From: Candidatus Aminicenantaceae bacterium
Lineage (GTDB): Bacteria > Acidobacteriota > Aminicenantia > Aminicenantales > Aminicenantaceae
DNA length: 64,000 bases
Assembly (NCBI GenBank): GCA_036446295.1
Contig: JAZFSR010000121.1
Coordinates: forward strand, 4,427-68,426
Direction of reading: 5' to 3'
Translations under genes and position numbers: made by a program
The notes under the pieces: model-generated
The model's database searches: none
Seen by the model: the letters and a program-made list of their open reading frames with translations, nothing else
Told to the model about the DNA's origin: nothing
Part shown: in pieces, positions 4,732-57,473 of the stretch
Layout: the number at the start of each line of letters is the position of its first letter
Numbering within the stretch: the first letter of the stretch is position 1

Positions 4732-6063
4732 TTATTGGGGACTGTCCCCAATTTTTTTATTTGGATCGATGGATTTTACCAAACAGGTCAGCTCGCCTTT
4801 ATAAAAAGAGACGGCCAGCTCCTCATTCTCCTTCACCTCTTCGATGGTCCGGACGAGCTGACGCCCCTTGTCCGTCCAACACAATGTATAGCCTTTTTTG
4901 AGAATATTTAGAGGGCTCAGGTTGTGGAGCTCGGCTGCCAACCGCTCCCATGTGCTTTTTAAGCCCTGGATCTTCTCCCGCATTAAACTCAACAATCTAG
5001 CTTCGGCGAAACGCGTGCGCGACCGGCTCTCGATAATCTTCTGCTGCAGGTCTTTGATCACATTCCACGCTCTCATATCCAGTTCGTCCACTTTCTGCTC
5101 TAAGCTCTTGAGCTTGAGCTTGAAATTTTGGAACGCCCTGTGATGGATCAGGCTCTGCACACGGTGTTTATTCTCCTGAATTGTGTACCGCAAAAGATGG
5201 GACATCTGCTGCTGCAGATTATCGATACGTTCGGTAAACGCCTCTTCCTTTTCGATCATCATCTCGGCGGCGGCGGAAGGCGTGGACGCGCGGATATCGG
5301 CCACAAAATCGGCAATCGTGAAATCCACCTCATGCCCCACGGCCGAAATCAGCGGCACCGGACAGTTAAAAATGGCCCGGGCCACAATCTCTTCGTTAAA
5401 GGCCCACAGGTCCTCCATGGACCCGCCGCCCCGTCCGGCGATAATGACATCGATATCGGCTAGACTTCCGAGATAATCGATGCCTTCGGCGATCTCCCGG
5501 GCCGCACCTTCGCCCTGAACCCGTGCCGGATAAATCACCACATGCAGGCGAGCAAACCTCCTGTCCAGGGTGCGGAGGATGTCGGTGATGGCCGCCCCCT
5601 GGGGGGATGTCACGACTCCGACTTTTTTCGGCAGGGCCGGTAGATTTTTCTTGATTTCAGGGTCGAACAGTCCCTCTTTGGACAGCTTGTCCTTGAGCTG
5701 TTCAAAGGCCAACTGCAAGTCGCCCTTTCCTTTGGGTTCAACAAAATCCACGATGAGTTGGTATGTCCCCCTTGGCTCGTAAACATTGATAGGCCCACGG
5801 CAGATGACCTGGAGGCCACTTTGGATGTCAAACTTCACTTTATTTGCCGAAGAGCGCCACATGACAGCCTTCATCTGGCTGTCCTTATCCTTTAGAGTAA
5901 AATAGAGATGCCCTGAATGGGCCCGTGTAAAATCGGCAATTTCGCCCATGACCCAAACTTTAGGAAAAGAGCCCTCCAAGTCGGCTTTTATCCGAGCGGT
6001 CAATTCCGAAACGGAATACACCTTATCCGGATGCTCTGGGTTGTTAGAGTTCCATGTCCTCAT
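4732..6063 (-). CDS. xseA: Exodeoxyribonuclease VII large subunit
   Basis: 443 aa with an OB-fold N-terminus and the ExoVII large-subunit catalytic region; it is adjacent to xseB. Confidence 0.9.
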   Translation of the reverse strand: MRTWNSNNPEHPDKVYSVSELTARIKADLEGSFPKVWVMGEIADFTRAHSGHLYFTLKDKDSQMKAVMWRSSANKVKFDIQSGLQVICRGPINVYEPRGTYQLIVDFVEPKGKGDLQLAFEQLKDKLSKEGLFDPEIKKNLPALPKKVGVVTSPQGAAITDILRTLDRRFARLHVVIYPARVQGEGAAREIAEGIDYLGSLADIDVIIAGRGGGSMEDLWAFNEEIVARAIFNCPVPLISAVGHEVDFTIADFVADIRASTPSAAAEMMIEKEEAFTERIDNLQQQMSHLLRYTIQENKHRVQSLIHHRAFQNFKLKLKSLEQKVDELDMRAWNVIKDLQQKIIESRSRTRFAEARLLSLMREKIQGLKSTWERLAAELHNLSPLNILKKGYTLCWTDKGRQLVRTIEEVKENEELAVSFYKGELTCLVKSIDPNKKIGDSPQ

Positions 6064-15460: not shown

Positions 15461-15535
15461 TGGTAGGCGCGGAGGGTATCGAACCCTCGACTTCTTCCGC
15501 GTCAGGGAAGCACTCTACCACTGAGCTACGCGCCT
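15461..15535 (-). tRNA. tRNA-Val (anticodon GAC), CCA encoded
   Basis: Reverse-complement folds as a cloverleaf: acceptor AGGCGCG/CGCGCCU, D-arm GCUC…GAGU, anticodon stem CUUCC/GGAAG with loop CUGACGC, T-arm GAGGG-UUCGAUA-CCCUC. Confidence 0.85.
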
Positions 15536-15580: not shown

Positions 15581-15618
15581 ATAGAATGTGTGCCCTCTTG
15601 TCCGCTTGGAATTAAAGG

Positions 15619-15724
15619 AATTAAAGGGACATCATACTTAATTAATTAAAGGGACATCATACTTAATTCTCACGAATTAAGTATGATGTCCCTTTAATTA
15701 ATTAAGTATGATGTCCCTTTAATT
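15619..15724. repeat. Palindromic repeat: 2 direct + 2 inverted copies of the 25-nt unit AATTAAAGGGACATCATACTTAATT around a 6-nt spacer (perfect 50-bp stem)
   Basis: Exact copies at 15619-15643 and 15644-15668, spacer CTCACG, then reverse-complement copies at 15675-15699 and 15700-15724. A partial copy lies at 15609-15618. The same unit recurs at 55983-56048. Confidence 0.9.
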
Positions 15725-16701
15725 CACTCCATGGGGTATTTGAGGCCCCATTGGGCACGGACCGTATCCATGGTTTCCATAATGGACAGAGATTCGTCGA
15801 GCGGCATGATATGGCTTTCGAGCCGGCCTTCCCGAATGCATCTCATCACTTCTTCAGCCTCAAAACTGAATCCGTTTCCTTTAAAAGGGAATTTAAGAAC
15901 TTTTTCTCTTTTTCCAAACTTCAGGGATAATTTTTTCGATTGCCACCAGGGGGAATACATGCGGAGTCTTCCTTTGGTCCCGATGATATACGCGTCCTGA
16001 GGGATTTCAGTGCGGACAGCCGCAGCCAGGACGGCCATCTGTCCAAGCTCATAACGAAGGAGTACGGCAGACTGCTCGTCTACCCCTGTATTGCCTAGAT
16101 GGCACTGGCTCGATATTTGGGCCGGTTGTCCAAACACCATGGACGCAAACGACACGGGATAGACCCCCACGTCCAGCAGCGCTCCACCACCAAGAGAAGG
16201 ATTGAACAATCTGTGGGATGGGTCAACTTCGGCTTTAAAACCAAAACCGGCGAAAAACATGCGGATTTCGCCGAGAAGCCCTTTCGTAAGGATCTCGCGC
16301 ACCTTGACTACAGCCGGCAGGAATCGCGTCCACATGGCTTCCATAATAAAGCACTTTTTCTCTTTGGCCAGAGAGATCACCTCTTTCGCCTGTGCGGCAT
16401 TTATGGTGAACGGCTTCTCACAGAGGACAGCCTTTCCTTCTCGAATCAGCATCAGGCAGTTTTCATAGTGAAGGTTGTGTGGTGTGGACACATACACCAC
16501 GTCGATGTCGGGATCAAGGGCAAGATCTTCATAGCTCCCGTACCTCTTTGGGATGCCGAACCTCCGCCCGAATTTATCTGCCGCCTCCTGTGTGCGGGAT
16601 CCGACGGCGGCCAGGTGGGCATCGGGCACTCGAGCCAATCCTTTGGCCATGGCGGCGGCAATGCCACCGGTGGCTAGTATTCCCCAGTTTATCTTTGGCA
16701 T
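15724..16701 (-). CDS. Gfo/Idh/MocA family NAD(P)-dependent oxidoreductase
   Basis: Rossmann N-terminus MPKINWGILATGGIA and a typical C-terminal alpha/beta domain. The ATG at 16701 was preferred over the ORF-track Met at 16749, which overlaps the upstream gene. Confidence 0.85.
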   Translation of the reverse strand: MPKINWGILATGGIAAAMAKGLARVPDAHLAAVGSRTQEAADKFGRRFGIPKRYGSYEDLALDPDIDVVYVSTPHNLHYENCLMLIREGKAVLCEKPFTINAAQAKEVISLAKEKKCFIMEAMWTRFLPAVVKVREILTKGLLGEIRMFFAGFGFKAEVDPSHRLFNPSLGGGALLDVGVYPVSFASMVFGQPAQISSQCHLGNTGVDEQSAVLLRYELGQMAVLAAAVRTEIPQDAYIIGTKGRLRMYSPWWQSKKLSLKFGKREKVLKFPFKGNGFSFEAEEVMRCIREGRLESHIMPLDESLSIMETMDTVRAQWGLKYPME

Positions 16702-16705
16702 AGTT

Positions 16706-17191
16706 CTAATATAAAGGCACAATATCGGCCGTTTTGTCCGCCGGATCAAAGAGGACCACAGTGTGTTTCCCGGTCACCCAGCCTCCCGTCTCACCGGGAT
16801 TGATAAGGAGTGTGTTTCCCTGGAAACGGACTTCAGGCTTGTGTGTATGGCCAAAAATGAGAACATCCGGATCGTACTGCTTCAGATAAGACTTGAGGGG
16901 AAAATCCAGATGTGACAGCAAATACTTCGCCCCCTCCCATTCAAATACAAAAGGCGCTTCTTGTATGTCCCCAAAATGCTGAATACCTCTCGTAAGCCCC
17001 TGTTTTTCCCCATCGCAGTTGCCAAACACTGCCTTGACCCGGCAGTTCAGATTGGCCAGCTCGGAGACCGCAAATGGGGCCACAAAATCTCCCACATGGA
17101 TCACCAGTTCACAGTCCATGCTGTTGAATAAACGGACGGCCTGTTTTATGGCATCACGGTTGTCATGTGAGTCCGACATCACTCCAATCAT
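16706..17191 (-). CDS. YfcE/MJ0936-family metallophosphoesterase
   Basis: 161 aa. MIGVMSDSHDNRD…GNCD…GHTH are the calcineurin-like phosphoesterase motifs. Confidence 0.85.
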   Translation of the reverse strand: MIGVMSDSHDNRDAIKQAVRLFNSMDCELVIHVGDFVAPFAVSELANLNCRVKAVFGNCDGEKQGLTRGIQHFGDIQEAPFVFEWEGAKYLLSHLDFPLKSYLKQYDPDVLIFGHTHKPEVRFQGNTLLINPGETGGWVTGKHTVVLFDPADKTADIVPLY

Positions 17192-17200
17192 TCTCCCCCC

Positions 17201-17343
17201 GAATTATTCATAAAAACTGCCTCCACCATCATTTCTCTCCAATGATATCAACTTTATAGCATGATTTTAGTAAGATCTCGAACATTTCTTTGTTTGTTGG
17301 CTAGTTTATACTAAATGTCGGCATTTTTTACCCCAAGGGGGCT
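17201..17343 (-). promoter_or_regulatory. Conserved 143-nt upstream leader (repeat B copy 1) with embedded sigma70-like promoter TTGGGG-17-TAGTAT
   Basis: About 75% identical to 31954-32096, in the same position relative to a different minus-strand gene. Read on the minus strand the putative -35/-10 are at 17331-17336 and 17308-17313. Confidence 0.5.
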
Positions 17344-31437: not shown

Positions 31438-31944
31438 CTATTCGTCCTTCTTTATGCCCTCGAGAACGTATGCTTTCAGGTGTTCAGCAATCAGGCTTTT
31501 TATCTTGTCCTCCAATTCCGCACCGCCTGAACGATCCTCAGCCGGCACCGGTTCCTCCGGAAGCGTTTGAGGATCAAAATCGCTTCCTGCCGCATCTCGG
31601 ACTTTTCGGACCAGGCTTATTGAATCGAACGGTTCCTCTATGAGTTCCCGGTATTCCAGCCCGTCTATCCTCTCCTCATCGACACTCTCAAATGCCCCCT
31701 TGAGGAGAAAAGTCGGAACAGTCTTGAATCGCTCCTGGTGGTTGAGAAAACGACAGACATCATATCCATCCTTGGAATCAAGAAACAGGTTCAAAAGAAT
31801 AACATCGGGCTGAAAGGTCTCCAACTCCGTGAGCATCTCTTGGCCATCTGAAAAAAAGGAAATTTCGAATTCTGTCTCAGGAAATGCCGCCCGGACAGCC
31901 ATAATAACTGAAGGGGTGCAGTCTGCAAGTATCACTTTAATCAT
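31438..31944 (-). CDS. Atypical (pseudo-)receiver domain protein
   Basis: 168 aa with a CheY-like fold pattern. The phospho-acceptor position reads N (DVILLNLFLDSKDG) and the conserved Lys reads E (…EEPF…). Confidence 0.65.
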   Translation of the reverse strand: MIKVILADCTPSVIMAVRAAFPETEFEISFFSDGQEMLTELETFQPDVILLNLFLDSKDGYDVCRFLNHQERFKTVPTFLLKGAFESVDEERIDGLEYRELIEEPFDSISLVRKVRDAAGSDFDPQTLPEEPVPAEDRSGGAELEDKIKSLIAEHLKAYVLEGIKKDE

Positions 31945-31953
31945 GTTAAGCCT

Positions 31954-32096
31954 GAATTATTCATAAAAACTACCAACACCTTCATTTAACTTAAACAATT
32001 TCGACTTGATAGCATTGTATTTAACAATATCCGAGAACATTACTTTGTTTGTCAGATTATATCTATTAAATGTCGTCATTTTTTACCCCAAGAGGG
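31954..32096 (-). promoter_or_regulatory. Conserved 143-nt upstream leader (repeat B copy 2) with TTGGGG-17-TAATAG promoter-like element
   Basis: Homologous to 17201-17343, in the same position relative to the receiver-domain gene start (31944). Confidence 0.5.
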
Positions 32097-32210
32097 CGAA
32101 CCGATCTTACCACATCTGCTTCGTTACAACCAATTCGCGGTGGAAAACCACAGCTTCATTGGCCGTAGCCTCGCATTTGTAGCAACCTCGGATCGTGAAT
32201 AATCCAGGGA

Positions 32211-37323: not shown

Positions 37324-37596
37324 TAGCTAGATTATTAGAAATCAAACCTTGTCTTCTTCTTGAGATGAAGGCGGGACCCCTCCGCGGCGCACCTCCGTCC
37401 TCGCTCTGATCGCTGCGCGCAGAGATACACCGCTTCGCCCTTCCTTCATCTCCTTCAAGATAAATCTGATATAGGGATGCATACCTTTCGTAACACCTGC
37501 AGCAGAGTCGGATGGACGTCGAGAAGTGTGTCTCCGCCCGGAGCTTCAGCGAGGAATGGAGACATACCTCGTAAGGGTTCCGTCCGACTCTAAAAG
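37324..37596. repeat. ~270-nt GC-rich structured repeat (repeat A copy 1)
   Basis: About 90% identical to 42643-42913 in the same orientation. Contains nested stems, e.g. GAGATGAAGG…CCTTCATCTC and GAGTCGGATGGACG…CGTCCGACTC enclosing GTGTCTCC…GGAGACAT. Confidence 0.85.
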
Positions 37597-37607
37597 AAAT
37601 AAGGGAA

Positions 37608-42642: not shown

Positions 42643-42913
42643 ATTAGAAATCACGCTTTGTTATCTTCTGCTGGAGATGAAGGCGGGACCCCTTCCGCGG
42701 CGCACCTCCGTCCTCACTCCTCCGTCGTTGCGCGCAGAGATACACCGCTTCGCCCTCCCTTCATCTCTATCAAGATAGATCGGCTTGAGAAGGATGCATA
42801 CCTTTCGTAACACCTGCCGTTGAGTCGGATGGACGTCGAGAAGTGTGTCTCCGCCCGGAAGCTTTAGCGAGGAATGGAGACATACCTCGTAAGGGTTCCG
42901 TCCGACTCTCAAA
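42643..42913. repeat. ~270-nt GC-rich structured repeat (repeat A copy 2)
   Basis: See 37324-37596. Lies between the convergent polyferredoxin (+) and etfA (-) genes. Confidence 0.85.
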
Positions 42914-42955
42914 TTAACACGGAGGAACTACGGATTTCTCCAACATCTTCTCTAG

Positions 42956-44798: not shown

Positions 44799-44823
44799 AT
44801 ATTGAATGAAAATGAGGATACAT

Positions 44824-44846
44824 CATCTTCTGCATGAGATGAAGGG
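44824..44846. repeat. Partial third copy of the 5' end of repeat A (ATCTTCTGCATGAGATGAAGG)
   Basis: Matches the first ~22 nt of the repeat A core (TCTTCT.C.TGAGATGAAGG) and is followed by a G8 run. Confidence 0.5.
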
Positions 44847-44861
44847 GGGGGTTAGGAGTTT

Positions 44862-55872: not shown

Positions 55873-55982
55873 TTTATTTCCTTAAAACATTTCAAGTCGT
55901 GCCTAATTTATCCCAATCCTACACTAAAAATCAATTCCCCCCGTGCACGAGGATAAACAGGCAAGGGGTGGATGGCACAATG

Positions 55983-56048
55983 AATTAAAGGGACATCATA
56001 CTTAATTATCGCTTTAATTCAATAATTAAGTATGATGTCCCTTTAATT
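55983..56048. repeat. Second locus of the 25-nt palindromic unit (1 direct + 1 inverted copy, 16-nt spacer), nested in an outer imperfect inverted repeat CCCCGTGCACGA…TCGTGCCGGGG
   Basis: Exact unit AATTAAAGGGACATCATACTTAATT at 55983-56007 and its reverse complement at 56024-56048. The outer inverted repeat lies at 55938-55950 and 56051-56061. Confidence 0.85.
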
Positions 56049-56088
56049 CATCGTGCCGGGGACCGCTCCTCTCACAACTACATTTGGG

Positions 56089-56117
56089 TTGACACTCAAG
56101 GGCAGAATGAATAAACT
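56089..56117 (+). promoter_or_regulatory. Candidate sigma70 promoter for rnf operon (TTGACA-17-TAAACT)
   Basis: Located 36 nt upstream of the rnfC ATG. Confidence 0.35.
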
Positions 56118-56153: not shown

Positions 56154-57473
56154 ATGAAGATAAAAACGTTTCCACGAGGCACCCATCCTCCGGAACAAAA
56201 ATCTCTAACGGCCGGATCTCCTCTTGAATCCATGCCCCCTCCCGAAAAAGTTTTCATCCCGCTCCATCAGCATTTTGGCAGCCCCGCAAAAGCCATTGTG
56301 CAGAAAGGGGATGAGGTCCTACTTGGACAAAAAATCGGAGAAGCCACAGCACTCTTTTCTGCGGATGTACATGCCAGTGTCTCGGGAAAAGTCTTGGCTG
56401 TTGACGGCTACAACCACCCGCTCGGAAAGCCCGTTCTGGCCGTCTCCATTGCCAACAATGGCGAAGACAGGCCCGACCCCGGAATATCTGGAACCGAAAA
56501 TCCTCTCTCTCTGGAGCCGGAGGCTATCCGGACAAAAGTGAAGGAAGCTGGGATTGTAGGACTGGGAGGCGCAGGATTCCCAACGGCCGTTAAGCTGTCT
56601 CCCCCTAAAGACAAGCCGATCGACACCGTCATTATTAACGGCTGTGAATGTGAGCCCTTGCTCAACGCCGATTACAGACTTTTGATAGAATTTGCCGACC
56701 ATGTTCTTCAGGGAGCCGAACTTGTCCGAATCGCCACAGGCGCCGACCGGATTATTATCGGGATTGAAGACAATAAGAAAGATGCTTTTGCCCTCTTTAA
56801 AGATAAGACTTTGGATTCTCAAATAGAGATTGTCCTTCTCAAAACAAAATATCCACAAGGTGCTGAGAAAAATCTTATCTCTGCCCTTCTCGATAGGAAG
56901 GTCCCTAAAGGCGGGCTTCCCTTTGACGTTGGAGTTGTGGTCCAGAATGTCGGGACGGCCAAAGCCATCTGGGACGCCGTCAAAACAGGACGGCCTCTCT
57001 ATGAGCGCGCCCTGACCGTATCCGGATCGGGTGTCAATAATCCCAAAAATTTGATAGTCCGGATCGGGACCCTGTTCAAGGATGTGCTGGAATTCTGCGG
57101 CGGACAAGAAAACGATGCGAATATCCTTGTTATGGGCGGCCCCATGATGGGGCTTTCCCAGTGGACGTCGGATGTTCCCGTCATAAAGGGAACCTCTGGG
57201 ATCCTCTCCTGGCAGACCGATCCTCCTTTTTTTGTGCACACCTGCATCCAGTGTGCCCGGTGTGTTGGACACTGCCCCATGAACCTTGTGCCCACTCGGC
57301 TTATGAAATATGCGAAAAATGACCATATCAAAGAAGCGGAAGACTGGGGAATTCTGGACTGCGTGGAGTGCGGCTGCTGTCAGTACATATGCCCTGCCGG
57401 CATTCCCCTGGTCCATTGGATTCGGCTGGGAAAAAACAACGTGATGATTGAAAAAAGGAAAAAGAGTGCCTGA
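56154..57473 (+). CDS. rnfC: Rnf electron transport complex subunit C
   Basis: 439 aa with the NADH-binding region GGAGFP and two 4Fe-4S motifs (CIQCARCVGHCP, CVECGCCQYICP). Confidence 0.9.
   Translation: MKIKTFPRGTHPPEQKSLTAGSPLESMPPPEKVFIPLHQHFGSPAKAIVQKGDEVLLGQKIGEATALFSADVHASVSGKVLAVDGYNHPLGKPVLAVSIANNGEDRPDPGISGTENPLSLEPEAIRTKVKEAGIVGLGGAGFPTAVKLSPPKDKPIDTVIINGCECEPLLNADYRLLIEFADHVLQGAELVRIATGADRIIIGIEDNKKDAFALFKDKTLDSQIEIVLLKTKYPQGAEKNLISALLDRKVPKGGLPFDVGVVVQNVGTAKAIWDAVKTGRPLYERALTVSGSGVNNPKNLIVRIGTLFKDVLEFCGGQENDANILVMGGPMMGLSQWTSDVPVIKGTSGILSWQTDPPFFVHTCIQCARCVGHCPMNLVPTRLMKYAKNDHIKEAEDWGILDCVECGCCQYICPAGIPLVHWIRLGKNNVMIEKRKKSA

Follow-up and report, generated by a model that had tools for sequence, protein, structure and literature searches.

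Two hairpins built from one 25-nt unit

The DNA considered here, a 64,000-nt stretch of contig JAZFSR010000121.1 (hereafter the window), carries two long hairpins in intergenic spacers, one beside a Gfo/Idh/MocA oxidoreductase gene (locus 1) and one between a divergent GNAT-like gene and rnfC (locus 2). Both are assembled from a single 25-nt unit, AATTAAAGGGACATCATACTTAATT, which occurs six times in the window, every copy exact (Table 1), and which had no match in 100 dinucleotide-preserving shuffles of the window even when up to three mismatches were allowed. Sequence comparisons make it likely that this unit is the repeat, of the repetitive extragenic palindrome (REP) type, of a lineage of Y1/HUH transposases resembling the REP-associated tyrosine transposases (RAYTs), in Aminicenantes-like bacteria. 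The window hairpins are REPIN-like doublets (REPIN, REP doublet forming hairpin), one of them doubled.

The unit copies stand two direct and two inverted at locus 1, and one direct and one inverted at locus 2, exactly where a first-pass annotation of this DNA had placed them. That annotation had also described locus 1 as a hairpin with every base paired, which holds for the pairing and not for the extent: the arms (15618-15669 and 15674-15725, 100% complementary) measure 52 nt rather than 50, around a 4-nt loop (TCAC, 15670-15673), because the G/C adjoining each unit pairs too. Folded as single-stranded DNA, the locus reaches -56.3 kcal/mol (z = -21). Copies 2 and 3, together with the loop CTCACG between them, form an inner doublet, and copy 4 has as its last base the A of the TGA at which the oxidoreductase gene stops. 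Beside the locus lies an extra partial unit terminus; partial 5' unit copies are found ahead of full units at many loci of other genomes.

At locus 2 the arms (55974-56009 and 56022-56057) are 36 nt long, 97% complementary and separated by a 12-nt loop, each arm consisting of the unit, 9 flanking nt and 2 loop-side nt; the adjacent 9 nt (GGCACAATG/CATCGTGCC) are a real extension of the stem, and the locus folds as single-stranded DNA at -34.5 kcal/mol (z = -11). The outer imperfect inverted repeat (CCCCGTGCACGA...TCGTGCCGGGG) in which this doublet had been thought to be nested proved weak, matching over 79% of 14 nt with the arms 94 nt apart. Its left arm is a small local palindrome, CCCCGTTCACGGGG, found also in a relative free of the unit (L142), and is on this sequence comparison ancestral. 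A single unit forms only a 6-bp A/T stem (-0.1 kcal/mol; 60 of 200 shuffles fold as well), and neither of its strands holds GTAG, GTGG or CGTC.

Table 1. Unit copies, hairpins and adjoining features, in window coordinates
Feature	Position	Strand	Remark
Locus 1	15618..15725	.	perfect hairpin, doubled REPIN-like element
Unit copy 1, outer direct, AATTAAAGGGACATCATACTTAATT	15619..15643	+	exact match
Unit copy 2, inner direct	15644..15668	+	exact match
Unit copy 3, inner inverted	15675..15699	-	exact match
Unit copy 4, outer inverted	15700..15724	-	exact match
Extra partial unit terminus, GAATTAAAGG	15609..15618	+	beside locus 1
Locus 2	55974..56057	.	single REPIN-like doublet
Unit copy 5	55983..56007	+	exact match
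Unit copy 6	56024..56048	-	exact match
Partial unit terminus in locus 2 loop, TCGCTTTAATTCA vs TCCCTTTAATTCA	56009..56021	+	
tRNA-Val(GAC), downstream of locus 1	15461..15535	-	context
Gfo/Idh/MocA oxidoreductase gene	15724..16701	-	stop codon abuts locus 1
Promoter-like TTGACA-17-TAAACT, upstream of rnfC	56089..56117	+	conserved in relatives

The unit in other genomes

We scanned a set with one genome per species, the source genome of the window not being among them, for the exact 20-nt core of the unit, and recovered 49 stretches (these, like the other loci compared here, are numbered with the prefix L) in eight metagenome-assembled genomes (MAGs). About 34 of the 49 came from a single MAG, CAZEWV01; the others were from two Aminicenantes MAGs, from CAZLLG01, which carries an 83% orthologue of the window oxidoreductase, from one 'Desulfobacca' and from three Omnitrophota. 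Counting unit-like copies with up to five substitutions gave 133 across the loci (88 perfect), with at least 96 in the loci of CAZEWV01 and 14 in another MAG. Thus the 25-mer that the first-pass annotation had proposed to look for elsewhere is not confined to the window, and is multi-copy and extragenic. Viral contigs gave 0 matches to the core. Window regions orthologous to the REPIN-bearing loci of other MAGs amounted to none beyond the repeat itself.

The copies are arranged with strong regularity. Adjacent units were convergent ('+-') in 37 pairs and divergent ('-+') in one, and all 62 unit clusters were intergenic, whether between divergent (17), convergent (13) or tandem (24) genes; clusters often abut a stop codon, and solo and tandem units are common. 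The loop of a doublet is typically C-N3-5-G and varies between most loci, while the arms are identical. The CTCACG loop of the inner doublet of locus 1 recurs in two ordinary doublets (L032, L014), at non-orthologous sites in three genomes altogether, and we therefore take it that doublets have been copied together with their loop.

The unit-richest MAG, CAZEWV01 (L001-L048), is titled 'uncultured Eubacteriales'. This label is probably wrong, because long syntenic stretches of the MAG are 87-89% identical in nucleotide sequence to those of an Aminicenantes MAG (L007/L049, L030/L046) and because the nearest named relative of its Y1 protein is from Aminicenantes. The window is, by its sequence, Aminicenantes-like.

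A Y1/HUH transposase bracketed by the unit

When the open reading frames (ORFs) of the 49 loci were compared all against all, Y1 was the sole recurrent transposase-like family beside units, and no DDE gene was found beside them. The protein encoded at L028:93-767 (~217 aa) scores 38 bits against Pfam Y1_Tnp (PF01797; gathering threshold 23), a threshold also exceeded by a 216-aa protein of L017, and its best NCBIfam model is REP_Tyr_transpos, at 58 bits vs 17 bits for the IS200 model. The sole PDB sequence match of the L028 protein is 4ER8, the REP-bound structure of E. coli TnpA_REP; in a Foldseek search with its AlphaFold2 model (pLDDT 90) the best structure was again 4er8_A (E = 3e-9, TM 0.68), the TnpA proteins of IS608, ISDra2 and IS200 coming next at ~1e-4. 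The motifs N59-H60-x-H62 and R118-Y119-x-E-x-N123 are invariant, and the Y-x3-N spacing is the same as that of Y115/N119 in E. coli TnpA_REP (PMC6006769). The transposase also carries a conserved C-terminal extension of ~75 aa. More than 7,000 proteins belong to this family at E <= 1e-30, all of them named only 'transposase'. There is one gene of this type (p28-type) among the retrieved loci of the high-copy MAG CAZEWV01, and the gene lies in a syntenic neighbourhood in L028, L059, L060, L144 and L145.

At L028 the gene is bracketed by the unit. On its 5' side, in gene orientation, come one or more canonical units, a 12-nt loop, a variant unit (AATTCGAGGGACACTATACTTAATT on the other strand) and ~115 nt containing a promoter-like TTGTCA; on its 3' side the variant unit appears again, a few bases from the stop codon. 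A metagenome scan with the L028 protein returned 80 loci. The bracket is the same in L059 (100% identity) and L060 (88%), the canonical units beside the gene numbering two in L028 and one plus a fragment in L060, at the same locus. An 80% identical homologue has the bracket AATTAGAGGGACATCATACTTAATT, a 70% identical one AATTAGGGGACGTGATACTTAATT, and a 58% identical one, from a complete Omnitrophota genome, AATTCCAGGGACACAACACTTAATT; at 40-49% identity there are inverted pairs of TAGGGACAGCGCCTA, of the type AAAATAGGGACAGCGCCTATTTT, and this last repeat folds by itself (-4.4 kcal/mol). In L144, L146, L063-L069 and L103 one inverted repeat pair surrounds the gene. What is conserved throughout the brackets is a GGGAC core with A/T-rich palindromic ends, including the ACTTAATT end. 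The repeat thus diverges in step with the gene while GGGAC is kept, a REPtron-like relationship (PMC6006769). The association with a RAYT that had been proposed as a test of the element is therefore positive, in related genomes and not in the window.

The Y1 protein encoded at L017:1050-1698 (-) is a distant paralogue that shares 29% identity with that of L028 and scores 61 bits against REP_Tyr_transpos. Its gene lies 195 nt from a canonical unit (L017:1892-1916) and is not bracketed by units; 3' of it stands a 12-bp palindrome of no relation to the unit (AGTATTAATTTT...AAAATTAATACT), and here there may be another repeat family that has an enzyme of its own.

Presence and absence in relatives

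The order oxidoreductase, tRNA-Val, thrS is kept in relatives whose oxidoreductases are 96, 89, 83 and 81% identical to that of the window. The palindrome of locus 1 is absent in all four of these, and 170-300 nt of other sequence fill the spacer from the oxidoreductase stop to the tRNA promoter; upstream of rnfC, the unit is likewise absent in relatives at 96, 91, 91 and 85% identity. Both loci are therefore lineage-specific gains. Elsewhere, a solo unit shared by L060 and L059 is missing from L120, and L041 holds an extra doublet that L060 lacks; neither comparison (L060/L120 or L041/L060) showed a clear target duplication, and L008 and L018 were not alignable as a filled/empty pair. The comparison of orthologous spacers that the first-pass annotation had suggested thus finds the unit polymorphic between related genomes, and a unit restricted to two loci and invariant among strains, which would have spoken against a mobile element, is clearly not what these genomes contain.

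A second dispersed repeat (element X), GC-rich and ~260 nt long (...GAGATGAAGGCGGGACCCCTCCGCGGCGCACCTCCGTCCTCG...GCAGAGATACACCGCTTCGCCC...), is present in the window at 37349-37604 and 42661-42922 (88-96% identity), with a partial third copy at 44823-44855, and elsewhere at L050:10982-11150, L140:1148-1500 and L058:1612-1648; it had no Rfam match at E <= 0.1. In relatives element X is found at precisely the two intergenic sites where the window has the unit, and one relative has it at both. The two spacers look like hot spots in which different repeats replace each other. Two assemblies that encode an identical oxidoreductase, compared at L052:11120-11288 and L050:11120-11360, cease abruptly to match immediately after ...CTCTCAATTAA, in the spacer that precedes tRNA-Val; one runs on into the tRNA, the other into unlike sequence that bears repeats. 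Either the strains differ here by a rearrangement or an assembly was wrongly joined at a repeat.

Gene context of the window hairpins

Locus 1 lies between the oxidoreductase stop codon and the tRNA-Val promoter, and locus 2 ahead of the rnf promoter, as had been claimed. The promoter-like site of tRNA-Val(GAC), TTGACT-17-TAGTAT at 15581-15553, is 38 nt beyond locus 1 and conserved in relatives, and the tRNA is followed by thrS-infC-rpmI-rplT-pheS; the promoter-like site of rnfC (56154-57473) begins 41 nt past unit copy 6. The earlier statement that the hairpins are not classic intrinsic terminators also stands, no terminator-like U-tract being found after locus 1. A Rho-independent terminator was considered and rejected, there being no terminator-like site at locus 1 and the stem being A/T-rich rather than G+C-rich. 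At Rfam gathering thresholds only the tRNA was found, and no family for the hairpins; at E <= 0.1 the only other matches were of the hairpins, sub-threshold, to eukaryotic miRNA-precursor models, which is taken as a generic hairpin artefact.

Two segments of the window, 17178-17342 and 31931-32097, are 75-83% similar copies comprising an intergenic segment and the 5' end of a gene, probably the upstream regions of paralogous genes. The contigs of the relatives L056 and L057 terminate near the first of these.

Copies in Omnitrophota

An imperfect form of the hairpin (AGGGGGACACAATACATAATT cgttg AATTAAGTATGATGTCCCTTTA) is kept by three Omnitrophota MAGs at a single orthologous position (L047:2395-2476, L037:~1540-1610, L042:~4750-4820), where it directly precedes the ribosome-binding site of a 48-aa zinc-ribbon-like ORF. 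L047 has a second hairpin (L047:3340-3407) 931 bp downstream, so placed that the pair brackets the zinc-ribbon-like ORF, a CopG-type antitoxin gene and a 91-aa partner ORF. We considered whether this direct hairpin pair could be the ends of an IS200/IS605 element and rejected this, the 931-bp segment holding the zinc-ribbon-like ORF and the CopG-type antitoxin and no transposase.

One arm of the Omnitrophota hairpin is identical to the Aminicenantes unit at 22 of 25 nt, and p28-type transposases occur in both Aminicenantes (Acidobacteriota) and Omnitrophota, those of Omnitrophota at 58% identity. The shared arm raises the possibility that the repeat is common to the two phyla, or else that contigs were wrongly binned. 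The accepted view of REPIN-RAYT systems is one of almost purely vertical inheritance; provided that the contigs are correctly binned, a system of the REPIN/RAYT type, or the repeat of one, would have crossed phyla.

The doubled hairpin and complementary flanks

The 2+2 form of locus 1 could be a doublet with the CTCACG loop that inserted at the centre of another doublet, or alternatively a doublet symmetrically duplicated in place. We slightly favour self-insertion because the inner CTCACG loop is common to 1+1 doublets of two other genomes. Nested forms with truncated outer units occur at L013, L022 and L003, and a loop-less doublet at L045. Outside the unit, the flanks of 13 of 37 doublets are perfectly complementary over 7-47 nt. 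At some loci these complementary flanks are the arms of other palindromic repeat families, which also occur without the unit; the 25-nt doublet stands at the centre of their stems at some of the loci. Such families in the same genomes include CCCCATTTCCGTGATTT..., GGGGTCAGACATTTAAAAC... and GGCC[AT]GGCTTTGAAA..., with sites at L013:973-1040, L052:11146-11200, L007:4620-4720, L049:1985-2085, L022:1979-2123, L031:1591, L019:7028 and L048:3946-4025. REP dimers inside palindromic flanks have been published before (PMC3733652).

These flanks speak for the strongest of the alternative accounts, in which the long palindromes grew in place, by template-switching or slippage round one inserted unit, with no transposition of doublets and no self-insertion. 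Besides the 13 doublets with complementary flanks it can call on L007, where the right flank mirrors the left, including 2-3 nt that lie in the loop of a unit-free copy of the same hairpin family at L013:973, and on partial unit termini duplicated beside full units. The identical CTCACG loop in three non-orthologous doublets argues instead for copying of whole doublets, and some of the complementary flanks belong to families that exist without the unit (cf. PMC3733652). We regard growth in place as a minority possibility of some weight, and it concerns the shape of the copies rather than the identity of the element.

It is also possible that integration is centred on hairpins, with doublets placed at the exact centre of other palindromes, themselves included; the cases are the 2+2 form of the window, the nested forms of L013 and L022, and a second hairpin family at L007/L049. 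If so, the Y1 enzyme would prefer hairpin tips, or insertion would generate inverted duplications of the flanks; we know of no demonstration of a hairpin-tip integration rule for this enzyme family. A joint reading, with cross-phylum spread as well as hairpin-centred integration, seems to us unlikely.

Interpretation and alternatives

The first-pass annotation had suggested a REP/BIME-like mobile palindrome (BIME, bacterial interspersed mosaic element), and this description is borne out by a unit that is multi-copy, extragenic and polymorphic and that brackets a RAYT-like gene in three assemblies. On the reading as a REP-type repeat, the inverted doublets, which in single-stranded DNA form long hairpins, would be non-autonomous elements. 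If E. coli TnpA_REP and IS608 are a guide, the transposase would copy or move these doublets in trans, acting on single-stranded DNA at the replication fork and leaving no target duplication. Locus 2 would then be one such doublet, and locus 1 a doublet exactly centred in a second one, or a symmetrically duplicated doublet. The Y1 enzyme presumably cleaves and joins this unit, and the genome of the window presumably still encodes it. The hairpins may also influence how the oxidoreductase, tRNA-Val or rnf genes are expressed, possibly as a barrier to 3' exonucleases or a block to read-through.

Several observations weigh against this reading or limit it. There is no Y1 transposase gene in the 64-kb window (tblastn), and since the source genome lay outside the scan as well, the activity of the element in its source organism is unproven; the window copies could be relics. 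The transposase is linked to the unit by position and co-variation. Its scores, 58-72 bits, are below the cut-off of 80 of the NCBIfam RAYT equivalog (NF047646), which is nonetheless the best-matching model. The unit has no GT[AG]G/CGTC tag, and it is not a classical REP, since a single unit has no stable fold. For neither window locus was a clean empty site found: the ancestral spacer has been replaced and not simply interrupted, and no target or duplication is definable there because the spacers of relatives are hypervariable, with other repeats. In view of the missing tag, the foldless unit, the long perfect stems, the C-terminal extension and the sub-cut-off scores, we file the element as REPIN-like or TIRtron-type, and not as a canonical GTAG REP.

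Among explanations that do without such a transposase, the unit might be a non-mobile host motif, that is, a protein-binding site, a stabiliser or attenuator of RNA 3' ends or an uptake-like signal, kept identical by selection or biased recombination. Many unit copies do abut stop codons, the three Omnitrophota MAGs keep their imperfect version at one orthologous site before a small ORF, and the uptake signals of Neisseria and Haemophilus are likewise inverted pairs with variable loops. Yet copies are as frequent in divergent promoter regions as after genes and have no U-tract, both window loci are missing in close relatives that have the same genes and promoters, no Rfam family matches, and a transposase-specific, co-varying bracket is not expected of a host signal. 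An uptake signal in particular is rejected because all copies are intergenic and the bracket co-varies with the transposase gene. We consider a host motif very improbable.

Still less probable is a miniature inverted-repeat transposable element (MITE), the alternative that had been named beside the REP/BIME-like one. A doublet would then consist of the pair of 25-bp terminal inverted repeats from an insertion sequence of DDE type, whose transposase would mobilise it. A doublet does resemble two such repeats back to back, and the AATT at both unit ends can be read as a duplicated target, the ancestral locus 1 spacer being TGAATTC...CAATTAAAG. Against such an origin stand the filled/empty pairs, which show no consistent target duplication, the recurrence of Y1 alone beside the units with no DDE gene among the ORFs of the 49 loci, the many solo and tandem units, and loops that differ and flanking bases that vary between copies. 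Lacking both the duplication and the transposase, the MITE-like alternative is unsupported.

An assembly or sequencing artefact, for example a fold-back chimera, is barely conceivable: dozens of contigs, produced by different assemblers in independent projects and unlike in their flanks, show the same unit and doublet architecture, which excludes an artefact for the family, and only the exact 2+2 copy number inside locus 1 may be wrong in the assembly, because short-read assembly copes badly with perfect 52-bp palindromes.

Significance and comparison with known systems

On the preferred reading as the repeat of a RAYT-like transposase, the element is of a known kind, here in a further example and not a new kind; no long-standing question is opened and no new mechanism is shown. 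It would extend the range of REPIN/RAYT (or TIRtron) systems to uncultured Aminicenantes-like bacteria, and the clean co-variation series, running from 100% down to 40% identity, could reveal the bases read by the enzyme, for which GGGAC and the ACTTAATT end, the conserved parts, are the candidates. The most unusual points are a nearly identical arm in two phyla and the doublets at the centres of other palindromes. For annotation, it would be wrong to call such hairpins terminators, riboswitches or miRNA-like RNAs, and contig breaks near hairpins might partly stem from these repeats.

Among the closest known systems are the REPIN-RAYT pairs of Pseudomonas fluorescens SBW25 and the TnpA_REP and BIMEs of E. 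coli. With these the element shares a short extragenic repeat, present tens to hundreds of times and occurring mostly as inverted doublets that form long hairpins and also as clusters and solo remnants. Arms are conserved and spacers vary by copy, in keeping with the definitions of REPIN and RAYT, in which variable spacers are described (PMC3337134). Common to both, too, is a Y1/HUH gene bracketed by its own co-varying repeat, its fold here being closest to 4ER8. The differences lie in the unit, which bears no GT[AG]G tag (the canonical REP foot is GT[AG]G or CGTC; PMC3733652, PMC6006769) and is not a stable palindrome singly; in the doublets, which combine long, perfect stems (25-52 bp) with short loops (4-8 nt); in the protein, with its score below the NCBIfam RAYT cut-off and its ~75-aa C-terminal extension; and in the hosts, which are Aminicenantes and Omnitrophota and not Proteobacteria.

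TIRtrons (Di Nocera et al. 2013) match by description, having a RAYT-like gene and inverted repeats unrelated to GTAG REPs. In the TIRYT/TIRtron arrangement (TIRYT, TIR-associated tyrosine transposase) RAYT-like genes are flanked by repeats, many of the GGGGWSAS type, that are dispersed as dimers and clusters; four groups of TIRYTs have been published, and a distinct Acidobacteria group exists (PMC3733652). Set beside GGGGWSAS, L065, L069 and the Omnitrophota copies have GGGGACAG or GGGGACAC as their core, while the core of the unit itself, AGGGACAT, is one G short. In both, the flanking repeats make up moderately abundant families of dimers or clusters; with at least 96 copies in a MAG that is incomplete, the present repeat is at the high end of 'moderately abundant'.

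The IS200/IS605 elements and their palindrome-associated transposable elements (PATEs) have in common with the present system the transposase superfamily, DNA hairpins as recognition elements and the absence of target duplication. Here, however, the gene belongs to no multi-copy insertion sequence, and only the small repeat has been amplified; the structural match to IS608 and ISDra2 TnpA is ~10^5-fold weaker in E-value than that to 4ER8, and the NCBIfam IS200 model gives the proteins 17-24 bits vs a cut-off of 55. An IS200/IS605 end or a PATE was rejected on these scores and on the L047 segment without a transposase. Bacterial MITEs (Correia/NEMIS, RUP, ERIC, Nezha) are similarly small, non-coding, intergenic and hairpin-forming, with terminal inverted repeats. 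They are derivatives of DDE insertion sequences, 70-300 bp in size, that keep their interior conserved and show target-site duplications, whereas the element described here is ~56 bp long, with a loop interior that is not conserved, no duplication and a Y1 enzyme.

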